Source: Atractiella rhizophila (lineage: Eukaryota). From it: a stretch of 32,366 bases of DNA. The position numbers and the translations under genes are program-made. The notes under the pieces are model-generated. The model ran no database searches, was not told where the DNA came from, and worked only from the letters and a program-made list of their open reading frames with translations. Of this stretch, positions 2,582 to 24,452 are shown piece after piece (the first letter of the stretch is position 1; each line of letters starts with the position of its first letter). The stretch lies in NCBI GenBank assembly GCA_021432655.1, contig MU271683.1, positions 1 through 32,366 of the forward strand. Direction: 5' to 3'.

Positions 2582-3397
2582 GTTGGAGCCTGAGTGATGG
2601 TGCCGTGATGGTGTTGGATGTGGAAACAGTTGGAAGGTAGAAGTGGCGAGTTGAGATGGAGTTACAGCATATGAGGTGAGAGATAGAAGAGTATGGGAGG
2701 AGGAGGAGTAGGAGCAGTACAATATCGGAGGAGTAAGAGGAGAGTGAAGAGGCGGATGAGGATTATAATTATAATAATGTTGAGAGAAAAAGAACTCGGC
2801 GATCATATCAACATGCTTGCGAGATAAAGTTTAGTCCGTCCTCTTTCCTTGTCAACGTGCATCCATAATTCTAGAGCCAGGGGGCGTAACGGCATAACGC
2901 AGGAACTTGCAGTGAGCTCGTCTCTTTCATGTTGTTTGGTGATTACCGTTGCCAACGACATCGGCCATGCATTTTATGAACTCAATTCGAGTTATGTGCA
3001 GTCCTTGGAAATAAATAAATGCTTCACCAAAAACAGCCTCTGAAGGACTTGAAATTACTGAATCAAGTCGTTGGCGGACCAGTTTACTAGCTTGTTTAGA
3101 CTCGGAATTCGAGCGTTTATAGTGCTCATTCTGGCTCGTTCAAGCCACAGCTCCTGCCAGTATCCCGAGCGGCGGTTCTTTACTAAATCGCCGTCATCGC
3201 AGACATTTCCGCAATAGTTATTGCTTCAAATTTATCTGATATGTTCCTCTTCAATGAGCAACAGCCGACAAGAGAGATAAAGGACATTCATGCTGACAAA
3301 TACGAATGGGTTAGCAATCGCCAAACTGCCACTCCTCTCCCGCCTCCTCAAATCTCTTCCTCTCGTCCCTATTTCTATTTCAAAAAGAACAGCGACG

Positions 3398-4092
3398 ATG
3401 TCGTCTGCCATCGAACTCCAGACCGCCTTCCTCTCCCAACCTTCCTTCGCGGTGAGCTGATCCCTCCTCTCCTTGCTTCATTGCTTCCTCCCATCCACTC
3501 CCTCCATGCTCTCCGAGATCAAGACAGTTACATTGGTTCACAGGTGGTCGGAGCATCCAAGGATCCTTCAAAGTTCGGAAACAAGGTATTGAAGTGGTAC
3601 AAGGCCCATAACCTCTCCGTCACGCCTATCAACCCGAAAGAGAGTGAGATCGAGGGCATCGTGCGTCTCTTCTCAATTTCCTTACGGTACGCTCTCTGAC
3701 GCGGTGTGGATGATACGATGCCAGTCTGCGATACAGAGCATCGACAGCCTCCAGAACCCAAAGTCTACCTCGCTTTCCGTCATCACGCCACCAAAAGTGA
3801 CGATGACCGTCCTTCCTAAAGCATTGGAACTCGGCATCCCCTATATCTGGCTTCAACCTGGTTCGTCCTCATCTACTTTCTTCTCTCATTTAGTCTTTTT
3901 ATTTATCAAGCTTGACGGTTGCTGATCTGGTTGTTTATCTGCTTGTGTGTGTGTTGTGATGGCACAGGTTGCGAGGATGCTGAAGTCGTTGAGTGGATCA
4001 AGGAGAATGCGAAGGACAAGGTGCTTTACGGCGGAGTTTGCGTTTTGGTCGACGGTGAGAAGAGGATGAGGGAGGGTGCTACTCGCCTTTGA
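3398..4092 (+). CDS. CoA-binding domain protein (YccU-like Rossmann fold), 4 exons, about 143 aa
   Basis: Exons 3398-3451, 3544-3660, 3725-3860 and 3968-4092 with GT-AG introns splice in frame to MSSAIELQTAFLSQPSFAVVGASKDPSKFGNKVLKWY..VTPINPK..SLSVITPP..IWLQPG..VCVLV. VVGAS, PINP and WLQPG are the CoA_binding_2 signature. Confidence 0.9.
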
Positions 4093-4160: not shown

Positions 4161-4649
4161 TGTCAGGCTTGCCCCTATGCATTACCAAAATGCACCATCT
4201 GAAGTCACGTGACCTACTTTACCATGTCATAAGATCATGTGCTTACCCATCGCCGCTTTGCTCATGTTCGCGCTGATCGCCGCCTTCCCTATCTCACACG
4301 AATCGCCGCTCAGCAAACCTTACACGTTTTGCCGGTCTGCACCGTCTCCATTATTGCTTTATTGTCCTTTCTCACTTGTACTGCTCAGTGTGACTTATTT
4401 CCGAGTATTCCCTTTATTGCTTTCCCGATCTAGCTATCTTACATGTTTCAAGAAACGTATGTTACAGTTTATGGCAGTGCCTTCACATAGGTATATATAC
4501 ATCGAGATGTAGTGATGGTGACCTCAGAGTATTCTCTTAGGTTTACCTCCACTACAGGTTAGTCTCCCCATGCCATACTATTCTCTTAAGTTTACCTCCA
4601 CTACAGACGTATCGCCTATCGGCGACCGCACATAGTGTCAGCCCTAACA
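4161..4649 (+). mobile_element. Solo LTR of the same family as the 8765-17695 element, in opposite orientation
   Basis: TGTCAGGCTTGCCCC...GCCCTAACA is the reverse complement of the LTRs at 8765-9254 and 17208-17695, with many CpG transitions. Flanks TATCT/CGAGG do not form a TSD. Confidence 0.9.
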
Positions 4650-8545: not shown

Positions 8546-8764
8546 TAATGCGTAAAGTTCTGCTGAAGGAGAAAGAGATGGAAGAAATTGAGACCAAGTG
8601 GTGGTAGTTTGCAAGCATATTGTAGAGGTAGGAGTAGAGACTGAATCTTGAAGGCGCAGAGTTTTTACTGCATTGAAGAAGTGGGTGGAAAATATTTCGA
8701 GGCAGTAAAACCAAGGCTCGACTTATAAACAGACAAGGTAGTGAAAGTGCAGTCAGGATACCCC

Positions 8765-9254
8765 TGTTAGGGCTAACACTATGTGCGGTCGCCGATAGGC
8801 GATGCGTCTGTAGTGGAGGTAAACCTAAGAGAATAATATGGCATGAGAAGACTAACCTATAGTGGAGGTAAACCTAAGAGAATACTCTGAGGTCACCACC
8901 ACTACATCTCGATGTATATATACATATGTAAAAGCACTGCCATAAACTGTACCATAAGTTTCTTGAAACATGTAAGATAGCTAGATCAGGAAAGCAATAA
9001 AAGGAAAGCTCGGAAATAAGACATACTGAGTAGTACAAGCGAGAAAGGACAATAAAGCAATAATTGAGACGGTGCAGACCGGCGAAATGTATAAGGTTTG
9101 CTGAGCGGCGATTCGTGTGAGACAGGGGAAGGCGTCGATCAGCGAGAACGTGAGCAAAGCGGCGATGAGCAGGCGCGTGGTCCCATGGCATGGTAAAGTG
9201 GGTCACGTGACTTCAGATGGTGCATTTCGGTAATGCGTAGGGGCAAGCCTGACA
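8765..9254 (-). repeat. 3' LTR (490 bp)
   Basis: Direct repeat of 17208-17695 (about 14 substitutions and one 2-bp indel by eye). Contains a TATA palindrome at 8912-8925 and a duplicated tagtggaggtaaacctaagagaata motif. Confidence 0.97.
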
Positions 9255-9263
9255 ACACCCCCC
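9255..9263 (-). other. Polypurine tract
   Basis: Minus strand reads GGGGGGTGT immediately before the TGTCAGG start of the 3' LTR. Confidence 0.7.
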
Positions 9264-9378
9264 AAATTTCTGACTCGTGTACGTGAGTCACGGAATTTTA
9301 AAGTTAAGGTTTGCGGCTAGCTTGGGCGAAAAAATTTTCCAGTTCTACCACCATCACCCTCCGTCTACTCTTGCAAAA

Positions 9379-10895
9379 ATGTCGACCGATGCGCAACTCT
9401 TCGACTTTGTTCTGGCTAACAAGGATAGGAAGGAGAGCACCATTTTCTGGGACGTGGAGAAAGCGAAGGAGGTGAACTTCGGGCGTTTCGCCGATGTGTT
9501 GGAGTGGGGGAAAAGGTGCTACCCTCTGTATGTCAAATTTTGTGATGAAGTGCAGGCAGAGGTGAGTTTTCTTGTCTCATATATTTTGTGTGGTAACTCG
9601 TCGGCGATGGGAAGGTGCGAATGGCTTATGAGGCTGCCAAAGGTTTCGGTGATGGACGGGTTTTGTCATTTCCTCTGCATATGCCTGTGGAAGGCGTGCA
9701 GGCGTTGCGTGATGAACTTCGTCTTTGGGCCGAACAAGCGGCGCTCGTGGAGGAGGAAGCGGTGAGACTCGGGTTTCAGCCCTCCGAGTCGGCGAATGGC
9801 GACCCTGTTTTGCGGAGGAAAGAACGAGAGCTTTTCTTGTCCGACACGAAAAAACGCTTGGCGAAGGAAGAAGAGGAACGCAAACGGGTGGCGCTTGAAA
9901 ATAAACGACGAGCGGCGGAAGAAAATTTGCGTGCTCAAAAGTCGATTTCGGCGGTGAAAGGACCCGAGGTTGGGGTTGTGAGGACTCTATCTGACCATCT
10001 GGTTACTGCGACAACCTTTGTTCTGCCTGCAGCGTTGGGGGATCGAAATCCGTTCGCCGGTGCGCCGGTCGCCGAATTCCTAGTGCGCGACGGAAAAGTG
10101 CGAATCGGCGACAAGGAATTGGATGCGGCGAAATATCGTTACTTCTGGCCAGGTACCCGTGAGGCTTATTCTCATGCTGCGGCGAACATCAATCTGGGTG
10201 AATTGGAACTCGAATTGGTTATCATGACTCCTCGGGCGAACCCGCGCATCCTCCCTACGTTAACGAGCATCGGAACGCAGCGATGTAGTAATTGTACTGG
10301 AAAAATTCGAGCGGCGCCTGTCAAAGCGGCGAAAAAGAAGGCTAAGGCCGACAACGAATCTCAAGTGTGTGACTTCTCCGCTGGGTATGTTGCAACCGCG
10401 TTCGGTCGGGTTTGTTCGCGTTGTCACAGTTCGCGAAAGAGGTGTGAGGTCTTGCCTTTGGGTTATTTGCGGGAACTCTCTATGCTGGTCGTGATGTCGA
10501 CTACCTTCCATCCTAAACGCATAGGCGACGGGAGAAAACGTCCGTCAGCTTTCGCCGAGAGCAATTATGAGAATGTGTCGGACGCCGACGAGGACTCTCC
10601 CTCGCATTCTATGCTGAGCGCCGCCCGGTTGTACTCCGAAGCTTTCAGCATGGATTTCGCACGCACGATGCTCGAGGCCGCCAGGTTAAATGCGCAAGCG
10701 GCGGCGGATGCTCTTAAGGCCGCCGAGTTGCAAATGGAATTGTTTAAAAGGAGGCAGGATGAACGTGTTGCGGAGGATGGGGCCAGTGAGGGTTCTGTGC
10801 TGGAAGGTGTGATAGCCGATGTGACTGGTAGGGTGAGTTCATCTGTTTTTTCGGCGATCCGTCTGATTCTCCAGATGTTTGTTTAGGCATCGTAG
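9379..10895 (+). CDS. Spliced antisense accessory gene of the retrotransposon: coiled-coil plus variant Zn(II)2Cys6-like protein, about 469 aa
   Basis: ATG at 9379. Exon 1 is 9379-9561; intron 9562-9614 (GTGAGT..GTAAC..AAG, phase 0); exon 2 is 9615-10832; probable intron 10833-10886 (GTGAGT..CTGAT..TAG), then GCA TCG TAG. Motif CX2CX24CX14CX2CX6C at 10284-10445; E/K/R-rich helices on both sides. Confidence 0.8.
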
Positions 10896-11574
10896 GGCAC
10901 CTAACTCGTCGCCAGCTGTACAAAAGTCGTCGCATCGGCGAAATCGAGTTCCGACTCGGCGACTTGAAACCTTCGTTGGCTCAGGAGGCTTATGATAATT
11001 CCAATTTCGATGTGTATTCTGATTCTGTTTCGAGCAGTAGTGATAGTGAGGAATCTATTCGGAGCGGCGATTTTGAGCTTTGAAATGTATGTTTTGTGAC
11101 TCCGTATTAGCGGCGAATTGCCGGGCGGCGACAAGTGTAAATCATGTTGTGGTGGCATAAGGCATTGTGGTGAGTGGGGAGATCAATGGCAAAGTGAGTG
11201 ATGTGGGACTCACACTCCCCTGTCTAGGGGAGGACCCTCAGGCGTTCCTCCCACTAGCTACCCAAGCTTATTATGGAGCTCGCAACCAAATAGGCCTGGG
11301 CCACGCGTTCGTGGACACAACGCGCAGTATAACATATCGGCGGTTTGCATGTTCATCGCCGGTCTGTTTCCTTGTGGGATAGTGTGTTGTCGAGCGAACA
11401 AATATGGGAAACAAAAGGATAAAAGCAAAAAATAGAACACCATAAACATCAAAACCAGAACAGGGCGTGAGATGAGAGGGGGCGTTGTGTACCTCGCAAT
11501 TGAGGGATTTTTTGGGATTTGACCGGTGTTGTTTTCGTGCAATAAGCAACCGTTTTTGCGGAACTGGCGTGAGT

Positions 11575-11933
11575 GACTCACCAACAAACCGGTCGCCGAT
11601 CTGTCCGTTGAGGAACAGACCGGCGCCTCGCCTAGACCTATGTTCAACAATGTGACTAGGGATTCACCCAGCGAGGCATGTAGAGGAGTAGGACCTCTTA
11701 AAGTGAGGGGGAGGGGACCTCGCGATTGAGGGCAATTTTCGTAAATGCGACATTGGTGATGGTGCGAGAACGCAATGAGCATTCGTCTTTGACGGGCGAC
11801 GAATGGACTCACCAACGACCAAGTCGCCGACTTGTCCGTTGAGGAACAAGTCGGCGCCTTGCCTTGACCTAAGTATCAAAGACTAGGATTTCACCCGGCA
11901 AGGCATATAGGGGTGTTGGACCCCTTAAAGTGA
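11575..11933 (-). repeat. Two direct repeats of about 130 bp (11575-11706, 11806-11933) forming a conserved multi-stem RNA structure
   Basis: Differences between the copies are concentrated in paired positions that compensate each other (see findings). Confidence 0.8.
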
Positions 11934-14900
11934 AGAAGGCCCTTCAGCGCGTTTTCGTCGAAGGTTACGGAAACGCGCATTTGGGCGATTTTTGGCGGGT
12001 TCGGTATGGAATCGGGACGAACTGCGAGGGGATGTGCAGTGTGATAGTCTTTTATGGCATCTTGTGAGTTTTCTAGATCTGTGATGTTGATCCACTCGTC
12101 TTCAGATGGTGAATACCCTTTGTATCGAACGCGATATTTGAAAACTCTATTTCGGGTACCGAACCATTTCCCATCAACAATTTTTTCTACTTCCCATTCC
12201 TCAATTCCATTCACCAATTCCGGAGGAGGTTTGGGCAACTGGACTCTGCCCGGAATGTCGTCTTCGTTGACTTTTCGATTGCCACATAATGGATGTCGTC
12301 TTGGTTGACTTTTCGTATTAGCGTCCCACATGGAACACTGGATGTATCTTCCATGAGGATGGCAACTCGAGTTTGAAGGTTGAGGGGACCCACAACACTT
12401 GCAAAACGCGAAAAGGGCCATGCCATTTGTCGTCTAAACTTTTTGACAGGTCTCGTCGATTTGATGTTTTTCGCGCTCAACCAGACGAAATCGCCGACAT
12501 GATATTCGGGCGCCGGTGCGCGTTTTCTGTCATAATGTTTTGCCATGAGATCTGCTGCTTGCTCGAGTGCCGCTTGTGCTTCCCGGTCGGCGGTTTGCAT
12601 CTTTTCGACGAATTGCGCCGCCGCGGGAACGTCCTCGTCGGAGATGGGTTCAAAGGCCATGCGGGGATGTTGACCGCAATCGAGCGAAAATGGAGTTACG
12701 CCCGTCGCCGAACTGTACGCGATTGTTGCAGCTGCAAATTCATGCGTTGTGGCGTGCTTGCTCCAGCAATTTCATCTCTCTCCGCAGTGGCGGCATGGAG
12801 TTCGGCCCTTTTCCGAACTTAGCGATTGTTAGTGAATGCAGGGAGTCCTTCCACCCAATTATCCTGAAGGTGGTTGCAGAAAATGCGCAAATATTGTTCA
12901 ACCTCTTGGTTCATACGTTCAGTTTGACCATCAGTCTGCGGGTGATAGGCTGTCGATGGTGAACCTTTGATACCTAATAGGCGAAAAAGTGCAGATGTGA
13001 ATTTGGACACGAATTCTTTGCCTCGATCGAAAATTGCGACATCAAAGAGTCCGTGTAGCTTCCATACATGATCGCGAAAAAGTCTTGCAAGGCCTTCTGC
13101 ATCCATCGTCGAATGGGTAGGGATGAGATGGGTGCGTTTTGAAAGTCTGTCTACTATGACGAAAATCATGTCAAACCCCCCAGATTCTGGGAGTGGTCCA
13201 ACCAAGTCCATGCTGACAATTTGCCAGCGACGTGTGGGAATGTCATTTGGTTGCAAAAACCCGACAGGTGGGGAAGGAAAGTGTTTCGTTCTGTGGCAAG
13301 TGTGACAGGCGCCGACATAGCGGCGGACGTAGTGCGCTAAACCTGGCCACCAATAGTACCTTTTCACTAGAGCTGTCGTCGATTTTACGCCTGGATGACC
13401 GGCGATTTGCGAATCATGTAGGTCTTGCAAAATCGAGCGGCGAATTTCGTCGTCGCGGGGAATGTAGAGTTTTCCGCGAAAGTAGACAGCGCCATCGACT
13501 TCTTGCCACTCCCGTCGGCGAATTGCGTCGACTGGTTCGTCTAGGATCTCTCTCAAGGCTTTGACTACTTGTTCTTCTCGTTCAGGTACCTTTTTCACGC
13601 GTTCCAGTATACTCAACTCCGACGTTTGTCTAGTGAGCGCGACCGCGCTCCCAGTCGCGCTGATCGTGATACGATCCGTGTTGAAAAAACGTTCTGGGAG
13701 TAATACTACGTCAAAGTTATCGCAAGTCGCCGGTTTGTGATCCGGTCGCCGACTGAGCGCATCTGGTTTTGCGGAGTTCCGTCCAGGACGGTGTAAAAGT
13801 GTGAAGTTGAAGGATGCAAGTTCGGTGATCCAACGTGCCTGTCGGCGATTCAACTTCTGCGGCATTCTGAAATACTCGAGATTTTTGTGATCGGTCAGGA
13901 TCAGAAATGGCTCATCAGTACCTTGTAGGAGGTGTCTCCATTCTTGTAGTCCTCGCATAATCGCGAGCATTTCTTTGTCGTAGGTGTCGTAGTTCCTCTG
14001 GGCGGCGTCGAGCGATTTTGACACGAAACCGAGAGGATGAAACTTCCCATCTGACTTCATTTGCGACAAAACGGCGCCTGTCGCGAAATTTGACGCATCA
14101 ACTTCAAGCAAAAATCGTCCTATTTGTTCGGGATGTGCTAAAACGGGCGCCGAAGTCATGAGCCGCTTCAAAGCGGCGAACGAACGTTGCTGATCTACCC
14201 CCCAGACCCAGGAAATCTCTTTTTTGGTCAGTTCATATAGAGGTCTCACGATGTGACTAAATCTGTCACAAAAGCGGCGATAGAAATTAGCGAAACCAAG
14301 GAACATTTGGACTTCCTTCATGTTTTTCGGTTCCGGCCAATCCATCACTCCTGCAACCTTTACTGGATCCGGTTCAATCCCCCTGCTGGTAATGATCAAT
14401 CCTAGATACTCTACTTCGCTTTGACACCAGACACATTTCTGCAAATTTACGTAAAGTCCATTTTCGCGTAAAATTTGACAAACTTGTCGAACGCGTTCCC
14501 AGTGTTCTTCTTCAGTTTCTGTCGCAATTAGGATGTCGTCTATGTATATGAAGATGAACGCAGCGGCGATCATGGCGCGGAAAATAGAGTTCAGGAAAGC
14601 TTGGAAGGTCGCCGGTGAGTTGCAGAGTCCGAAATACATTACCAATGGTTCGAAAAGTCCCCGATTTGTGCGAAACGCCGCTTTGTGTTCGTCTCCTTCT
14701 TTGATACGAACGTTGTTGAACCCTTTCCTCAGATCAATCTTGCTGAAAAACTTCTTACCAGAAACCATGGAAAAGAGGTCAGCTTGAATAGGGAGTGCGG
14801 TCTTGTCTTTGACTGTGGCTTCGTTCAGCTTTCGATAATCGAAAAGGGGACGAAGTTCGGAGGAGTCTTTTTTATGCGTGAAAAAAACAGAAGCTCCATG

Positions 14901-15857
14901 TTCACCTGTGCTAGGACGTATACGACCGGCGCTTAGTTCGGCGTCAATGAACTGGTCGAGCGCCGCTTGTTCGTCTCTTTTCAAGGGGTAGACCGGGCCC
15001 GCATATGGTCGTGATTCGGGTATGAGGTTGATCGCGTGATCCCAAGGACGTCGGGGAGGAAGAGAAGTTTTGAATTTTTCGTCGTCGAAAATGTCCGCAA
15101 AATCGGCGATTTGCGTTGGTATTTCGACGACATTTTTTGGTCTCATCGCCGCTGCGTCTTTCGCCAGTTTCTGCGATTTTGTCATAGCGGCTCGTATCGA
15201 GGTAGATGATGGCGGGAATTTTTCGCGAGTGGTAGACACGTCATCTGCATTGCAACTGGTAGGGCAACGAGAGAACTCAACTTTCCCTGAGTCCCAGTCG
15301 ATCTCTGGGTTGTGGTGTCTTAGCCAGTCATGGCCTAAAATCATGTCGACAGTCCCTAACTCCGCTACAGCAAATTGCCAAACTTCATGGTGAGCGGCGA
15401 TCGAAATGGGCAAGTAAGTAACAGAATGGATGGATCCTCCTTGATTGAGGGATCCGTCGATGTTATAAACAGGTACTGGGGAGGGAAGTTGAGTGACAGG
15501 TAGGTTGTATGCCGAAACGAGTTTTGGAGAAATGAAAGAAGTAGTTGCGCCGCTGTCGACGAGCGCCGATGTGGCCTGTCGGCGATGGGAATGCGGATGG
15601 TGGAATGCGGTTCTGAGCTTCGTCTTCGAACTGACAAGGGATGCTGTTGTCGAGCGTAGGTGGACTTTGTCGTACATTTTTGCGACTTCTGCGCATCTTT
15701 GTCTCCAGGAGGGAAAACGCAATTTCGGGAATGGGGAGTCTTGTTCAGATGGGGGGAATACCGTGCTGGGCGGCATTTTGTTGGAAGTGATTTTAGATGA
15801 CATAAATGAATTGCAAGTCGGCGATGGGGACACTTCTTCCACCCACCGCCGTCCTAA
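11891..15857 (-). CDS. pol: Pol polyprotein (aspartic protease, RT, RNase H, integrase, chromodomain); frameshifted between about 12200 and 12850
   Basis: Protease LVDSGAT; RT FDYRKLN, KIDLRKGF, MYFGLCNSPATFQ, YIDD; RNase H VDAS, YDKEMLA, TDHKNL; integrase HDSQIAGHPG..CHTC, MDLVG, FDRG, HPQTDGQTER; chromodomain EEWEVEKIVD..KYRVRYKGYSPSEDEW at about 12040-12205. Confidence 0.95.
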
Positions 15858-15863
15858 AAATCC
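15781..15863 (-). promoter_or_regulatory. Putative -1 ribosomal frameshift signal (G GAU UUU plus downstream stem-loop or pseudoknot)
   Basis: Heptamer at 15857-15863 directly precedes the gag UAG and pol is in the -1 frame. Stem CGGCGGUGGG/CCCAUCGCCG starts 5 nt downstream. Confidence 0.8.
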
Positions 15864-17164
15864 TCCTCAAGATCTTTCGATTGGGTAACACTCGTTTTCG
15901 GCGACTGATCGGCGAATTGTCCAAATTGTCGTTCTTGGTGCATCATTTTCGAATCAAAATATTCTCCCTGGGCCCGAAGATATTGCTCCTTGTTCATAAT
16001 CGTTCTACACTCCCTTTCCCGGTGTCCTATCTTTTGGCATCGCCTGCAACGGGGAGGTCTAGACTTTGTCGCGTCGACTTCCATGTCATCGGGGTCTTTG
16101 GCCCTATGAGCGTGTGGAGCGGCGTTGGGTGACGGATCGGCGACCGGTGACAAGGCGGCGCTCGGTCGATACGATACGGGCGTTCTGTTCTCTCTGTGCT
16201 TTGAGGATTTTGAGTTGTCCCTTTTTGCAGAAAACGTATTTTGTGGTCCGTCTTTCGCCGATGGGATGTTTCGAAAGAAGGTTGAATGCGCAGATTCTTC
16301 CGCATCAATTCGCCGAGATTTTTCTTTCCAGTCTTCCAGCGATTTTGGGAACTCCCCTTGGGTTACTTTGAGATGTAGGGTAGGATTGAGTCCTCGTTTG
16401 AAGAAAAAGGTAAGGGCTTCATCATCAAAGTCAGCTTGATTTGCCAATTCTTCGAACTTGATGATGTAGGTTTCTAGGTTCCCCTTTTGCTGGAGGGAAG
16501 ATATTTTTGTCTGTGCAATGAGCTTGTGGTCTGTCTTGCAGAAACGCGCTTTGAACTCCGACAAAAATTGTTCCCACGCAATTTGTTCCTCATTTTCGAC
16601 AAGTCGGCGCAAAATCCCAGCGGCGAATTTTTCCGCATCTCCTTCTTTCATGTAAGAAAGGGTAAATAGGATTTTCGATTTTTCAGTCGGGAATTGACCT
16701 GGAACGGTAGAGGTGTAGACGTAAATTTCACGTAAAAATGTCGGAGCTGTGTTAGGAGCTCCTTTGAAGATTGAAGGTGGAGCGAGCTTGATTCCTGCAT
16801 ACGGTGCTACTTGGGCAGTCTGGGATATAGACGGAGGAGAATAAGTTTGAGGTATTGGGTCTGTTCGCGATAAGAAAGGAGAGGTGGTTCCACTGTCTCT
16901 AGGAGGGGGCAGTCTGGAGTCCAATAATTGCAAAATTCGATCGTTTGTGTTTTGGACGTCGGACCTCAGTTGCGCAATTTCGTTCGCATTCTGGGAGGTT
17001 TGCGCATTTTGTTGGTTGAAGCTTGATATGAGGTCTTGTTCGAGTTTTTTGAATTGCTTTTCAGTTGTGAGGTGTAGAGTTTGGAACATCCTTTCTAAGT
17101 GCTGGATGCGTTCTTCGCTCGTCGGCGGTTCGCGCGTTTCCATATCTCCCCAAATCTCCGACAT
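15854..17164 (-). CDS. gag: Gag (capsid plus CCHC zinc knuckle), 436 aa
   Basis: N-terminal coiled coil; PSIFKG..FPTEKSKILFTLSYM capsid region; LQQKGNLETYIIKF MHR-like segment; DPDDMEVD followed by CRRCQKIGHREREC (CX2CX4HX4C). Confidence 0.95.
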   Translation of the reverse strand: MSEIWGDMETREPPTSEERIQHLERMFQTLHLTTEKQFKKLEQDLISSFNQQNAQTSQNANEIAQLRSDVQNTNDRILQLLDSRLPPPRDSGTTSPFLSRTDPIPQTYSPPSISQTAQVAPYAGIKLAPPSIFKGAPNTAPTFLREIYVYTSTVPGQFPTEKSKILFTLSYMKEGDAEKFAAGILRRLVENEEQIAWEQFLSEFKARFCKTDHKLIAQTKISSLQQKGNLETYIIKFEELANQADFDDEALTFFFKRGLNPTLHLKVTQGEFPKSLEDWKEKSRRIDAEESAHSTFFRNIPSAKDGPQNTFSAKRDNSKSSKHRENRTPVSYRPSAALSPVADPSPNAAPHAHRAKDPDDMEVDATKSRPPRCRRCQKIGHRERECRTIMNKEQYLRAQGEYFDSKMMHQERQFGQFADQSPKTSVTQSKDLEEDF

Positions 17165-17195
17165 TTTTTATGTTTGGTTTCAAAATTTTAAGGAG

Positions 17196-17205
17196 AGAGT
17201 ATTCT
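17196..17205 (-). other. Self-priming primer-binding site (AGAAUACUCU)
   Basis: Lies 2 nt inside the 5' LTR boundary, lacks the TGG of tRNA-primed PBSs, and is exactly complementary to AGAGUAUUCU in the LTR (17320-17329). Confidence 0.75.
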
Positions 17206-17207
17206 TC

Positions 17208-17695
17208 TGTTAGGGCTAACACTATGTGCGGTCGCCGATAGGCGATGCGTCTGTAGTGGAGGTAAACCTAAGAATAGTATGGCATGAGAAGACTAACCTG
17301 TAGTGGAGGTAAACCTAAGAGAATACTCTGAGGTCACCACCACTACATCTCGATGTATATATACATATGTAAAAGCACTGCCATAAACTGTATCATAAGT
17401 TTCTTGAAACATGTAAGATAGCTAGATCAGGAAAGCAATAAAAGGAAAACTCGGAAATAAGACATACTGAGCAGTACAAGTGAGAAAGGACAATAAAGCA
17501 TTAATGGAGACGGTGCAGACCGGCGAAATGTATAAGGTTCGCTGAGCGGCGATTCGTGTGAGACAGGGGAAGGCGGCGATCAGCAAGAACGTGAGCAAAG
17601 CGGCGATGGGCAGGCGCGTGGTCCTATGGCATGGTAAAGTGGGTCACGTGACTTCAGATGGTGCGTTTCGGTAATGCGTAGGGGCAAGCCTGACA
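17208..17695 (-). repeat. 5' LTR (488 bp)
   Basis: TGTCAGG...CCCTAACA on the minus strand; direct repeat of 8765-9254. Confidence 0.97.
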
Positions 17696-18190
17696 CTATA
17701 GAGGTCCAGGTATTCGAGGCAAGAAGATATGTGAAGGCCTGCTGCGCCTGAAGCGGTCCTCCACATTGTAAACTTTGAGCCATCTGATCCTGTCACCCAT
17801 CCTCCGCAGAAAGCTCTCGATCTTCTCCTTCCTCCACTTTCTCGAACTCCATGGTTGGCTAAAGCTGACATTATCCATCCATTGTAAGCCTTCGATTGCA
17901 TTCAACACAATCTCCGCCTCCTTGACATTCCAAAAAGTGTCCATCTCCACTGTCATGACATTCTGTGAGCCAGCGATGACCTCCTTCACTTTCTCAACAT
18001 TCATTCTTTGGTAAAACCTCAGTTTGTCCTACAATGTCCAGCACCAGGATAGAGTTTCAACCACTTATATTTTGCCACCACAAAATCAGGTTCACCTCAT
18101 TAAGAAGCTGAAACAGTTCTCCAGAGCTGGCGTACTTTTGAGGAAATGGTACTATCGTTGAGGAAACTGAAAATGCAAGAGAGGCAGGCT
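17696..18190 (-). pseudogene. Truncated paralog of the LRR/RNI-like gene at the window end, cut by the LTR
   Basis: 17696-17797 aligns with 32265-32366 (tatagaggtc.agg.attcgaggc..ctttgagc..tctgatcctgtcac; LEYLDLY vs LEFLDLY). Frameshifted and stops at the LTR. Confidence 0.75.
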
Positions 18191-18193
18191 CTA

Positions 18194-18505
18194 CACTGCC
18201 ATAAACTGTAACGTATGTTTCTTGAAACACGTAAGATGGCTAGATCCGGAAAGCAATAAAGGGAATACTCGGAAACAAGATATACTGAGTAGTACGAGTG
18301 AGAAAGGTTAATAAGGCGAAAATGGAGACGGTGCAGACCGGTGAAATGTATAAGGTTTGCTTAGTGGCAATTCGTGGGGAAAGCGGCGGACAGCGCGGGC
18401 ATGAGCAATGCGGTGATGGATAAGCAGGTGATCCTATGATGTGGCAAAGTAGGTCACGTGACTTCATATGGTGCATTTCGGTAATGTGTAGGGGCAAGCC
18501 TGACA
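18194..18505 (-). mobile_element. Truncated LTR (U3 part only) of the same family
   Basis: cactgccataaactgt...ggggcaagcctgaca matches the last 320 bp or so of the LTRs; decayed, with a small deletion. Confidence 0.9.
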
Positions 18506-18598: not shown

Positions 18599-19026
18599 TG
18601 TCAGGTTTGCATCTTAAGCAAATCGACGCCCGTTCGCCGGATTGCGTCTCCTATCGCCCATTTACGTTCTCTGCGAATCGGCGCCCGTTCGCTACTCTGC
18701 GGCTCCCGTCGCCTATTTGCGCCCATTTGTGCCTGCATCACCTCTTAGCCCTTTGTGTCTATTCTCCTCTTATTAACTCCCGCGTAATCCCACTGTCACT
18801 TCCCCCTTTTAGTTCTCTTATGTGTTTCATCTGCTCTCCTCTACACTCTGTGGCAGTGTTATTCCACTTGTATATATAGATCAGAGGGTAGTGGAGGTGA
18901 CCTTAGAATATTCTCTTAGGTTTATCTCCACTACAGGTTAGTCTTCATGTCATATCATGCACTTAGGTTTATCTCCACTACAGACGCATCACCCATTGGC
19001 GACCACATATAGTGTCAGCCCTAACA
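18599..19026 (+). mobile_element. Solo LTR of a related subfamily with 5-bp TSD GTAAG
   Basis: TGTCAGG...GCCCTAACA flanked by GTAAG at 18594-18598 and 19027-19031. The last 140 bp or so match R/U5 of the main family; U3 differs. Confidence 0.9.
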
Positions 19027-21793: not shown

Positions 21794-24452
21794 TCATTCA
21801 GAAGCTGATTCCATGACAAAATGAGGTGGGCTGAGATTTATCTCGCTCTCCCCGGCAGCATGTGAAGATCTTTGATCACTCCTCTTGGGCACTTTGCTCC
21901 ACCAGTCCAGGGTTGTCCACTCAACAATGCCTTTATCGTCTCCCTCAGCTGTCTCCAGATTAAGATTGTCGAGTAACTCGATGTGGTCCCTGAGATTCCC
22001 CCTTTTTTCAGGCTCGACCTCTAAACCCACAACCACTATGGCATATATGCTCTGCGGTAAAATGTTATCTGTGTTGTTAGATGAAGTGAGTCCTGTTCTC
22101 TGCAAAACATCCTCAGGTACTGGTGCAGGACACAGTTTCTTTCGTTTCTCAAGTATAAAGCAGGCTGTTACTGCGAATGCAAAGATATCCGATGCAAACG
22201 TCCAGGTTGGTGTTCTTGTGCAGATTTCCGGAGCATGCCACCATTGATAATGAGGAACGCTGGCTCTGAACGATGTTGCAGCCTCATCAACAGTCTGCCC
22301 TTCGCCAAAGTCAATTAAGAGTGCCGTATCTTCTGAATCATAACCATCTGGCTGATACAAGAATGTGTTTTGGGTCACCATGATATTATTCAGGTGAAGG
22401 TCCCTACAACAATTTGATCCAAAGTTATGCTAGTCCTGAAAGGTACAAACCTGTGAATGATGCCTCGTTTGTGCAGTGAGTGGAGACCATTGGCAATGCT
22501 ACTTAGCATACCAATCACCAGACTCCAAGATTGATGGAACGACGTATGGGGCAGCTTCTCCTCTATGAAATCCATTATGCGACCTGCATTGGCGAACTGT
22601 GAGACAAGGACTTGGGTCTCACCAGCTGCTGATAATGAGGCAGAGGTATTTGGTAGGGTGACACTGGAAATGCCAAAGAACTCGGCTGTACCAACTGCTG
22701 AACTGCCGACCCCAATGTTCATACGCAACTGGGAGCTGATGTAAGCCCTTCCCATCGTCCTAGAGAATTGCACATGCTTACCTCTTGTTGGAACTTTAAC
22801 TCGTCCTGCAAACTGTTTCCCAGGTTCGACTGGAGGACTTTAACAATAACCCCAACTTCCTTTTTCCCCTGACCTCTAGACAACAGGATGCTGCCTGGCC
22901 TCATCCAGGTCGCTCTGTACACCGTCCCATTCTTGCCCTTGCCTATGTAGTTCCAATCAATTTTCAATTGGCACGACGGTATGTGCCTGAGAGGATGAGT
23001 CAACATTCGATCAGAAGCCTGGTATTGTTGATATTCCGGTGCTGGCTGCATGCTCGCCTCGGTCACGTTTCGAAAATATTCCAGGGCCCCAATATCGGTC
23101 TCGAATTGTTGAAGATTTCGGTACTGCATCCCAGGGATAGTTTCAAGAAGAAGAAGCTCGCCATTCAAAGAGTTCCAAGTAAGACAGGAATCCGTCTGAT
23201 ATTGGTGGTTAGAGTAACTACAAGTTCAAGTTGTCAGTGCTCACCCAAGCTTTCCAAAAGTCTGATTGCCTGTCAAAGAGTCTGGTATCTCCTACAGGCC
23301 TCATGGCAAACACCACCTTCCCATTTGGACTAAAATGGCCAGGAAAGTACTTATTATTGTCCAGACAGCACCCAAACACCTCATCCTCTGTATGGAGCAT
23401 GTGCCCAGTAAATGGAGTCACCATGCCAGGATCCCACTCAACCCAGCGTAGATCTTTCGCTTTAAGATTGAGGTGGTCCATATATGGAATGTTCATGGCT
23501 GAGGTGATTTGTTTGATCTGATCTATTGGTACCTCATGCAGATCGTCAGGAGATAGAATGCCAATACTATGTTTTATAGCCTGTGTCACCAGTGACCAGT
23601 CTCAGATCGGTGCAGGATGGTTAGTACAATTTTACAAACCTCTTGCATGGTACTAGCCCTTGTGGACCGTTCATGATCGCGGTAAACAGATTCCACAATG
23701 TCTAATACTGACCCACCCATCCCCTGATGCCATTGATTGATCTGATCTGTTGTTGGTAACTCGCAGAGATTGTCAGGAGATAGAATGCCGATACGTTGCA
23801 TGATCTCTTCCACATTCTCAAATCGGACAGGATGATTACTCGGCCTGGTAGACTGGTGATAAAAACTGTAAATCGATTTGAAAATGTCGAATGTTGGACC
23901 CTTGCACAACTCCTGCTGCCACACTAGATGATCTCTTTTCCACATCCAGTGAATGAGCCTCCAGTGATCTTTGTCATCTGGGTAGATTGCAGGGTGAAGA
24001 CAATCAACCGATTCATTGGCGACTAATACAGGGAGCTCCGGATTGGCGCTCTTCACTGCATCAGAACGGAATTGGTTCTCTGCGTGGCCACGTCCGATGG
24101 CCCTCCAGTGCAAGTAGTCACCATAAGCTCGTTCGAAGCTCCCTCCGTAATCTTTCTTGACGAGATCCTGTTGCAGTTCCTCTCTCAGAGGCACGAAGAA
24201 TTTCTCCACCCAAACCCATCGCTGAAAGATGTCGTCGATGTCCAATGGCCAGGCAGTGGGTAGGGTTGCAGCAGCGGCGGGTTCAATGATTTCGCACAGG
24301 AGTTTCCTCTCGAACGCAGCCAGGGGCACAAAGAATGATTTCATGATAAGTGAACAGTCCAGTTTCTGTACGGTTTGCTCGATGGTGGCTTGCTGGTGTC
24401 GAAATGGGGGCAAAACACCATTTGGGCATCGGAACATATAAACGGCTGACAT
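21794..24452 (-). CDS. Protein kinase (TKL-like) with a long uncharacterised N-terminal region, 5 exons, about 815 aa
   Basis: ORF pieces splice across short GT-AG introns (e.g. 23581-23639, phase 0). IGKGKNGTVY, VIVK, spliced HRDLHLNN, IDFG, WHAPE and SDIFAF are all present. Confidence 0.85.

Follow-up and report, generated by a model that had tools for sequence, protein, structure and literature searches.

Open reading frames running antisense to gag-pol between pol and the 3′ long terminal repeat (LTR) have been described in plant gypsy elements, namely maize Grande (gene23), rice RIRE2, Silene Retand, and Phaseolus PvRetro13 (PMC7264820, PMC11963269). According to the accessible text of these sources, such plant frames (aORF-3R) are found in many copies and are conserved to a degree resembling that of the proteins of the element itself; what they do is unknown, a role as nuclear or DNA-binding regulator being suspected. 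The Grande product localizes to the nucleus, and a TRP28 (PF04195) domain is encoded in 97% of Retand clusters (PMC7264820, PMC11963269). Among fungi, brtn is the antisense gene of the Boty-like elements of Botrytis and Sclerotinia (PMC8365987, PMC4227169, both crediting Zhao et al. 2011, Virology 417:248); Boty pol carries a CHROMO domain (PMC4227169), and the extra gene, on the strand opposite gag-pol, occupies the space that separates pol from the 3′ LTR (PMC7264820). Retroviral antisense proteins of the HTLV-1 HBZ type are mentioned as well (PMC11963269). Given the plant aORF-3R and Boty brtn precedents, the architecture is therefore already known, even in a fungal chromovirus. In this work, a 32,366-nt stretch of the basidiomycete Atractiella rhizophila (GenBank assembly GCA_021432655.1, contig MU271683.1, positions 1 to 32,366, forward strand; hereafter, the window is this whole stretch) was analyzed. 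Its minus strand carries a Ty3/gypsy chromovirus, and on the opposite strand, at 9379–10895, in the interval that separates the chromodomain-coding end of pol from the 3′ LTR, lies an accessory gene antisense to gag-pol with a predicted product of about 469 amino acids. What appears to be new is the combination of an orphan product, a predicted multi-exon structure, and a basidiomycete chromovirus as carrier. A limited search of the open-access literature, which is no proof of absence, found no basidiomycete or intron-bearing example of such an antisense gene; the word "intron" is absent from the main text of PMC7264820 and PMC11963269, and intron-bearing antisense genes are not a feature described there.

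We judge it likely that the locus is a real, selected coding gene borne by the element, and, on balance, we favor the explanation that it is a lineage-restricted accessory gene of this A. rhizophila chromovirus. The element itself is well delimited. The two LTRs, which have TG..CA ends, share 96.7% identity across 490 nt (14 mismatches and one gap, blastn), and sibling contigs by the dozen cease to agree at 8765 and 9254, matching the LTR edges. Between the LTRs, the Pfam matches run in the order gag, protease–reverse transcriptase–RNase H–integrase, and then a chromodomain at the integrase C-terminus, with E-values in the main pol frame of 3.9e-33 for RVT_1, 8.2e-33 for RT_RNaseH, 5.4e-19 for Integrase_H2C2, 5.9e-10 for rve, and 8.7e-10 for RVP_2. 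An earlier note, made from the letters of the sequence, had called the element a chromovirus with gag and pol on the minus strand, and the LTR pair, the Pfam order, and the PF00385 match agree with it; the label is right because the last pol frame carries the chromodomain. The same note had described the accessory gene as intact within its element. This holds for the frame of the gene but not for the element, since in the window copy the integrase portion at the end of pol falls into three different frames, and small indels at 12322–12436, which most sibling contigs do not share, mark this copy as damaged.

The accessory gene begins with the ATG at 9379, which is situated 125 bp beyond the LTR end (9254), with no other ATG between it and the preceding in-frame stop at 9271–9273; the whole interval from pol to the 3′ LTR measures about 2.7 kb. 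The coordinates confirm what had been noticed from the sequence, namely a plus-strand gene of 469 amino acids inside the LTRs, opposite gag/pol and 125 bp from the 3′ LTR. Likewise, the two proposed introns of 53 and 54 nt are present as sequence features, both of the GTGAGT..AG type and with a branch-like TAAC (intron 1) or CTGAT (intron 2) about 20 nt 5′ of the acceptor. A host gene in the window that encodes a CoA-binding domain has introns of about 65–107 nt with the donors GTGCGT and GTTCGT; as its introns are also short, short introns are normal here. The splicing of the accessory gene is predicted on the basis of the sequence and of how the annotators modeled its paralogs. Regarding the coding nature of the frame, a stop-free run of 429 codons was reached in none of 2000 first-order Markov simulations of 9255–11975 (maximum 387), only short frames lie beneath it on the minus strand, and the G+C content by codon position follows the order GC1 > GC3 > GC2, which is coding-like and the same as in pol. 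A longer C-terminus, reached through the open frame at 10889–11083, was considered and rejected for now, given the weak GTAGGG donor that it would require and the absence of this segment from every database protein model.

The gene is not confined to this copy. A database search returned six hypothetical proteins of A. rhizophila from six contigs that differ in length (57–95% identity), and a scan of 1.84 billion representative proteins added one more, giving at least seven paralog gene models, all from A. rhizophila, and at least eight copies when the window is counted. The model of the window copy itself was absent among the returned proteins, the best match being 95% identical over 47% of the query. 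For comparison at the DNA level, sibling contigs from two runs of the same organism (X1 and X2) were compared over 8700–17200; the differences reported here are the best-supported 40 of 732, a subset that may lean to conserved stretches, the joints are 15 of 37, and 15 indels exist beyond those considered. Twelve of these 40 differences fall in the accessory gene, one in intron 1 and 11 in exons. Nine of the 11 exonic differences are at third positions and synonymous (three of four in exon 1 and six of seven in exon 2; binomial P = 0.0014 for at least nine of 11 at third positions), and the other two, F>Y and V>L, are conservative, while 11 of the 22 listed differences in the gag-pol frames are synonymous. 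The listed differences, being mostly synonymous, suggest that purifying selection acted on the frame as the lineage multiplied. The listed indels within 9255–10895 (at 9258, 9329, and 10878) all lie outside the coding exons. Additionally, one sibling contig with 48 differences (about 14% diverged) spans 9244–9585, and the junction between LTR and gene is thus kept in diverged copies.

The introns are also kept in sibling DNA, as indicated by a variant at 9579 in four contigs per run and by a 1-nt deletion at 10878 in three contigs per run, and no joint at either intron was found among the 15 of 37 joints considered. In the annotators' predictions, the intron-1 junction is identical in the paralog models P0004 and P0005, and P0006 reads partly into the intron. 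In retrotransposons, the RNA that is reverse-transcribed is the sense strand, and antisense GT..AG sites are not spliced on it. Persistence of the introns in the sibling copies is expected, because that RNA reads CT..AC at these places and cannot be spliced there; the DNA agrees with the proposal that the antisense orientation preserves the introns, and the locus provides an example of orientation shielding spliceosomal introns from loss in reverse transcription. The expectation that the gene would be present and selected in other copies fared less evenly; the paralogs and the synonymous bias speak for it, whereas most paralog models are broken and a form of the element without the region is likely.

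The predicted protein contains, in exon 2, exactly six Cys, at exon residues 224, 227, 252, 267, 270, and 277 (spacing 2, 24, 14, 2, 6), corresponding to a segment of 54 residues (285–338 of the 469) with two CXXC pairs. The CSNC-x24-C-x14-CSRC arrangement with a Lys-rich insert in the first loop was thus read correctly in the earlier note. Their clustering and the presence of two CXXC pairs make zinc binding by the six Cys very probable. Other features of the product are a basic patch (KRIGDGRKRP), an acidic stretch, and, also in exon 2, the conserved block ELDxxKYRYFWPGT. AlphaFold modeled the whole of exon 2 with a mean pLDDT of 43.1 and gave long helices at residues 25–51, 64–112 (block-mean up to 83), and 329–388, with values below 50 outside the helices; residues 141–302 of exon 2 alone reached a mean of 31.1, and the Cys cluster had a pLDDT of 25–41 in the two runs. 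Of the coiled-coil segments claimed earlier, the long predicted helices are what remains, as AlphaFold shows no more than helices. A gag-type CCHC knuckle was ruled out for the cluster, since C-X2-C-H-X5-C does not fit C-X2-C-X4-H-X4-C.

The earlier reading of this cluster was a diverged but genuine GAL4-type Zn2Cys6 binuclear-cluster transcription factor that binds CGG-type sites, and we now give this reading very little credence. It shares with the GAL4 type (PF00172) six clustered Cys in two CX2C-containing halves, one of them an Arg/Lys-rich C-X2-C-X6-C half. The second half, VCSRCHSSRKRC, fits the first-half pattern of the fungal zinc-cluster signature, and this resemblance leaves room for a distant or rearranged relationship to zinc clusters. 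Among neighbors in the ESM Atlas (0.76–0.87, all under the 0.9 lead level and thus leads only), one at 0.79 is a Basidiomycota cluster automatically named "Zn(2)-C6 fungal-type domain-containing protein", for which there is no common Pfam family. In contrast, PF00172 was not matched by the 80-aa Cys segment (E ≤ 10), by the 406-aa protein (E ≤ 1), or by any of eight aligned members, with the proviso that HMMER filters drop most matches above an E of about 0.1. The spacing of 2, 24, 14, 2, 6 differs from the canonical 2, 6, 5–12, 2, 6–8 in two of its five gaps (24 in place of 6 and 14 in place of 5–12), the cluster is internal and not N-terminal, and neither AlphaFold run provided a usable fold for it. 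The best weak Pfam matches of the Cys segment are generic zinc ribbons (Zn_ribbon_IS1595, E = 0.061; DUF2039, E = 0.08), and Ascomycota clusters, partly with DUF3716, score like the Zn(2)-C6 cluster in the ESM comparison (0.76–0.82). The description "Zn2Cys6-like" hence finds no support, given the missing PF00172 match, the spacing, the internal position, and the low pLDDT, and membership of the accessory protein in the GAL4 family is most doubtful. The DNA binding put forward in the earlier note is likewise left unsupported.

When compared to the plant aORF-3R, the accessory gene occupies the same position, inside the LTRs and downstream of pol, and the opposite strand, so the architectural analogy with Grande and Retand drawn in the earlier note is apt. 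As described in the sources cited above, the plant lineages are non-chromovirus and Retand carries TRP28, whereas the element here is a chromovirus and its accessory protein has no Pfam domain; TRP28 (PF04195) was matched neither by the protein nor by the Cys segment or any of the eight aligned members. At 11575–11933, this element has tandem units of about 230 nt, which echo the tandem repeats reported in the Retand pol–3′ LTR region. Boty, a fungal precedent that the earlier note had missed, is likewise a gypsy chromovirus whose antisense gene follows pol and precedes the 3′ LTR, but belongs to Ascomycota, while A. rhizophila is a Pucciniomycotina basidiomycete whose gene has a predicted product of 469 aa from three predicted exons. 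The designation "brtn-106" (PMC4227169) suggests a much smaller product than the one described here, if the name is read in that way, which the available text of the source does not state. A relation to brtn was not detectable, as judged indirectly from the 1.84 billion representatives, none of which matched from outside Atractiella.

How such a product might act can be proposed from these comparisons. The accessory gene would be transcribed from the end of the 3′ LTR next to the polypurine tract, possibly with a first exon in the LTR, and would yield a protein of about 469 amino acids with long charged helices and one zinc-binding module of six Cys (or four plus two). Its Lys/Arg patches would take it to the nucleus, where it would bind nucleic acid or chromatin proteins and so modulate the transcription, silencing, or copy number of its own element. 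This role is proposed by analogy, since such a mode of action is presumed or established for the antisense proteins encoded by plant Grande/Retand and by HTLV-1, and we consider a function as nuclear regulator less likely than not. HBZ, from a vertebrate retrovirus, belongs to the bZIP proteins, and the first exon of its spliced form is situated in the LTR. A fungal counterpart of HBZ, that is, an antisense regulator started in the LTR whose undescribed, expanded Cys6 zinc module and charged helices would bind the LTR or the silencing machinery and set transcription or copy number, seems rather improbable. The accessory gene resembles HBZ in being read antisense from the 3′ LTR end, and the sibling model P0003 places a first exon in the LTR; unlike HBZ, it has no bZIP or other domain recognized by Pfam, and transcription driven by the LTR is a prediction. 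If the counterpart were real, a new class of DNA- or chromatin-binding proteins encoded by transposons would begin with it. According to the accessible text of the reviews, antisense extra genes recur in plant gypsy elements and in at least one fungus, with a role that is unknown (PMC7264820, PMC11963269). An isolated fungus, a whole frame, a signal of selection, and two introns that mark the strand could make this role testable. The isolation of A. rhizophila has reportedly been the subject of an earlier study.

Some elements of a possible antisense promoter and first exon were found around the LTR. Residues 1–38 of P0003, the annotators' model of a sibling copy, match the LTR at 9063–9206 and 17504–17647 and then run into exon 1, joining ...WHGK to FYHHHPPSTLAKMSTDAQ. 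The window has a donor GTGGGT (9198) and an acceptor CAG (9342) that match this splice, and direct reading indicates that the 9198–9342 splice would place an ATG at 9165 in the same frame as the main ATG at 9379. The segment 9165–9197 may therefore represent a first exon borne by the LTR, or else an annotation artefact. A palindrome, GTCACGTGAC, with a CACGTG core is located at 9203–9212, at the LTR end on the side of the polypurine tract, and occurs unchanged in a third, diverged LTR at 18089–18505; TGAGTCA is located at 9284–9290, about 90 nt before the ATG at 9379, and a T/A-rich box lies about 85 nt upstream of the same ATG. By motif resemblance, the palindrome and TGAGTCA may be candidate elements of an antisense promoter.

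Several observations weigh against a functional accessory gene of the element, and part of them would suit a passenger instead, namely a host gene or gene fragment that was transduced into one sublineage, copied passively, and is decaying with no benefit to the element. One X1 contig joins 9254 to 11975 (the letters between are unknown), so that a form of the element without the accessory region probably exists. Distinct contigs in X1 number 4–13 at places in the accessory region, compared with 4–26 in gag-pol and 23–58 in the LTR, which hints at many copies without the region, contig depth being no measure of copy number. The G+C content of the accessory gene (54.2%; GC3 57%) exceeds that of pol (48.9%; GC3 49%) and gag (47.0%; GC3 47%), and this fits a later acquisition. 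Truncations or broken frames affect most paralog models. Of the five models that reach the cluster, one (P0003) retains the full set of six Cys; P0007 and P0010 break off at it, P0008 has its second Cys replaced by Tyr and then diverges, and P0004 is out of frame. The conservation of the six Cys in homologs, which had been expected if the cluster mattered, is thus seen in P0003, whereas the other four break or change frame, and most copies appear to be decaying, as transposon copies do. Moreover, transduced extra open reading frames are known from one or few copies in the available text of PMC11963269. Nevertheless, the share of synonymous differences points to a constraint at least equal to that of gag-pol, at least eight copies including the window carry the gene, no transposon-free homolog was found in the protein database searches, and the accessory frame is whole in a copy whose pol frame is broken. 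For these reasons we hold the passenger explanation to be unlikely; if true, it would make the locus an ordinary case.

The other points on this side concern the evidence for the product itself and the state of the copy. No significant Pfam family was found (the best for the whole protein being DUF6720 at E = 0.43), a profile of the eight aligned sequences retrieved from the PDB sequences only two chance-level potassium-channel rows (E = 0.8 and 1.4), and so a biochemical role would have to be read from motifs, in the face of no Pfam family, no PDB relative, and no confident fold. No homolog outside A. rhizophila was found among the 1.84 billion representative proteins (HMMER, E ≤ 0.001; three hits, all Atractiella paralogs), a search with the Cys region alone gave four paralogs and no other relative among 22 candidates, and in metagenome contigs a protein pattern with 431 matches revealed no relative while a 29-nt DNA pattern had no match. 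Transcription, the two junctions, and the C-terminus are predictions from sequence. The 11 exonic differences belong to the best-supported subset of the 732 and may favor conserved stretches, although the same bias applies to gag-pol. Finally, the LTR pair has no target-site duplication (8760–8764 ACCCC versus 17696–17700 CTATA, the outer five bases being compared), and the window copy may accordingly be a recombinant between two copies or have been rearranged later.

Two further explanations were considered. The window copy could have been exapted, in which case this one gene would serve the host and be retained by it, inside an otherwise dead element. The 469-aa frame is unbroken alongside a pol that is split over three frames, the private indels are listed at 12322–12436 and none in accessory exons, and, as there is no target-site duplication, the insertion is not fresh. 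However, this is one copy only, and the chance of finding no indel in 1.4 kb is not small; the database search returned no protein model for the window copy, and selection in the lineage of the element would explain the synonymous differences just as well, which makes exaptation highly improbable. The locus could also be no gene at all, but a chance open frame or an annotation artefact spread among repeats, as might be argued from the lack of a known domain or confident fold and from the disagreement of the annotators' paralog models among themselves. Such an origin would have to account for a frame length never reached in the simulations, for the synonymous bias relative to the siblings, for two frames joined by canonical introns, and for the clustering of the Cys residues, and we regard it as very improbable. 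A nested transposon as the source of the region was ruled out, because no terminal inverted or direct repeats bound 9255–11975. Our preferred explanation is therefore still the lineage-restricted accessory gene; its features and those of the element are compiled in Table 1.

Table 1. Features of the accessory gene and of the surrounding chromovirus in the window.
Feature	Position	Strand	Remarks
3′ LTR	8765..9254	-	LTR-LTR alignment, blastn; GTCACGTGAC palindrome at about 9203–9212
Possible 5′ intron, 145 nt, GTGGGT..CAG	9198..9342	+	Acceptor 36 nt 5′ of ATG; lead only
Polypurine tract region adjoining 3′ LTR	9255..9273	-	Minus strand reads ...AAATTTGGGGGGTGT, direct sequence reading
Exon 1, 61 aa (predicted)	9379..9561	+	88–92% identical in paralog models P0004–P0008
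Intron 1, 53 nt, GTGAGT..AAG (predicted)	9562..9614	+	TAAC near 3′ end; required to link two conserved frames
Exon 2, 406 aa (predicted)	9615..10832	+	Charged helical region, Cys cluster, basic patches, acidic stretch, C-terminal helix
Cys cluster CSNC-X24-C-X14-CSRC-X6-C	10284..10445	+	Lys-rich KAAKKKAK in first loop
Intron 2, 54 nt, GTGAGT..TAG (predicted)	10833..10886	+	CTGAT near 3′ end; from sequence
Exon 3, Ala-Ser-stop (GCA TCG TAG) (predicted)	10887..10895	+	Predicted product total 469 aa
Downstream open frame	10889..11083	+	Would lengthen protein only via weaker donor GTAGGG at 10828
Two diverged tandem units, ~230 nt (11575–11706 and 11806–11933)	11575..11933		83% identical; overlap end of pol frame
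Last pol frame with chromodomain	11891..12433	-	PF00385, E = 4.4e-9
Integrase C-terminal piece, second frame	12211..12771	-	Small indels relative to most siblings
pol: protease, reverse transcriptase, RNase H, integrase zinc and core domains	12819..15866	-	Pfam matches
gag with CCHC knuckle	15854..17167	-	Retrotrans_gag E = 3.3e-12, Ty3_capsid E = 8.1e-8
5′ LTR	17206..17695	-	LTR-LTR alignment

Further details of the region and its surroundings were recorded. Each of the tandem units of about 230 nt contains the motif GACTCACC, and the second unit has a 16-nt hairpin (11820–11861). A sibling joint runs from 11655 through TGA to the outer LTR edge at 8765, hinting at a rearranged or non-autonomous derivative. 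With respect to the paralog models, the C-terminal half of P0008 is unrelated to the accessory protein and probably gives the DUF4218 match (E = 3.3e-4) obtained for one of the eight aligned sequences; P0008 would be a chimeric model over a nested transposon.

By its sequence context, the element sits within a nest of related insertions. A partial, related LTR remnant at 18089–18505, in direct orientation and 62–82% identical, is located just past the 5′ LTR, and other remnants at about 4209–4649 and 18842–19026 are in inverted orientation and 79–84% identical to each other. Just outside the 3′ LTR, the segment 8000–8600 is very A+T-rich (G+C 25.5%). Soil and rhizosphere runs (X3 and X4) contained small shares of the stretch, in short pieces only, and no habitat inference was drawn from them. 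Host-like genes flank the repeats, namely a gene at 3187–4000 (plus strand) with short introns and a CoA_binding_2 domain (PF13380, E = 9.5e-12 and 4.8e-6 in two exons), and a protein-kinase fragment at 21794–22429 (minus strand; PF07714, E = 2.9e-7).

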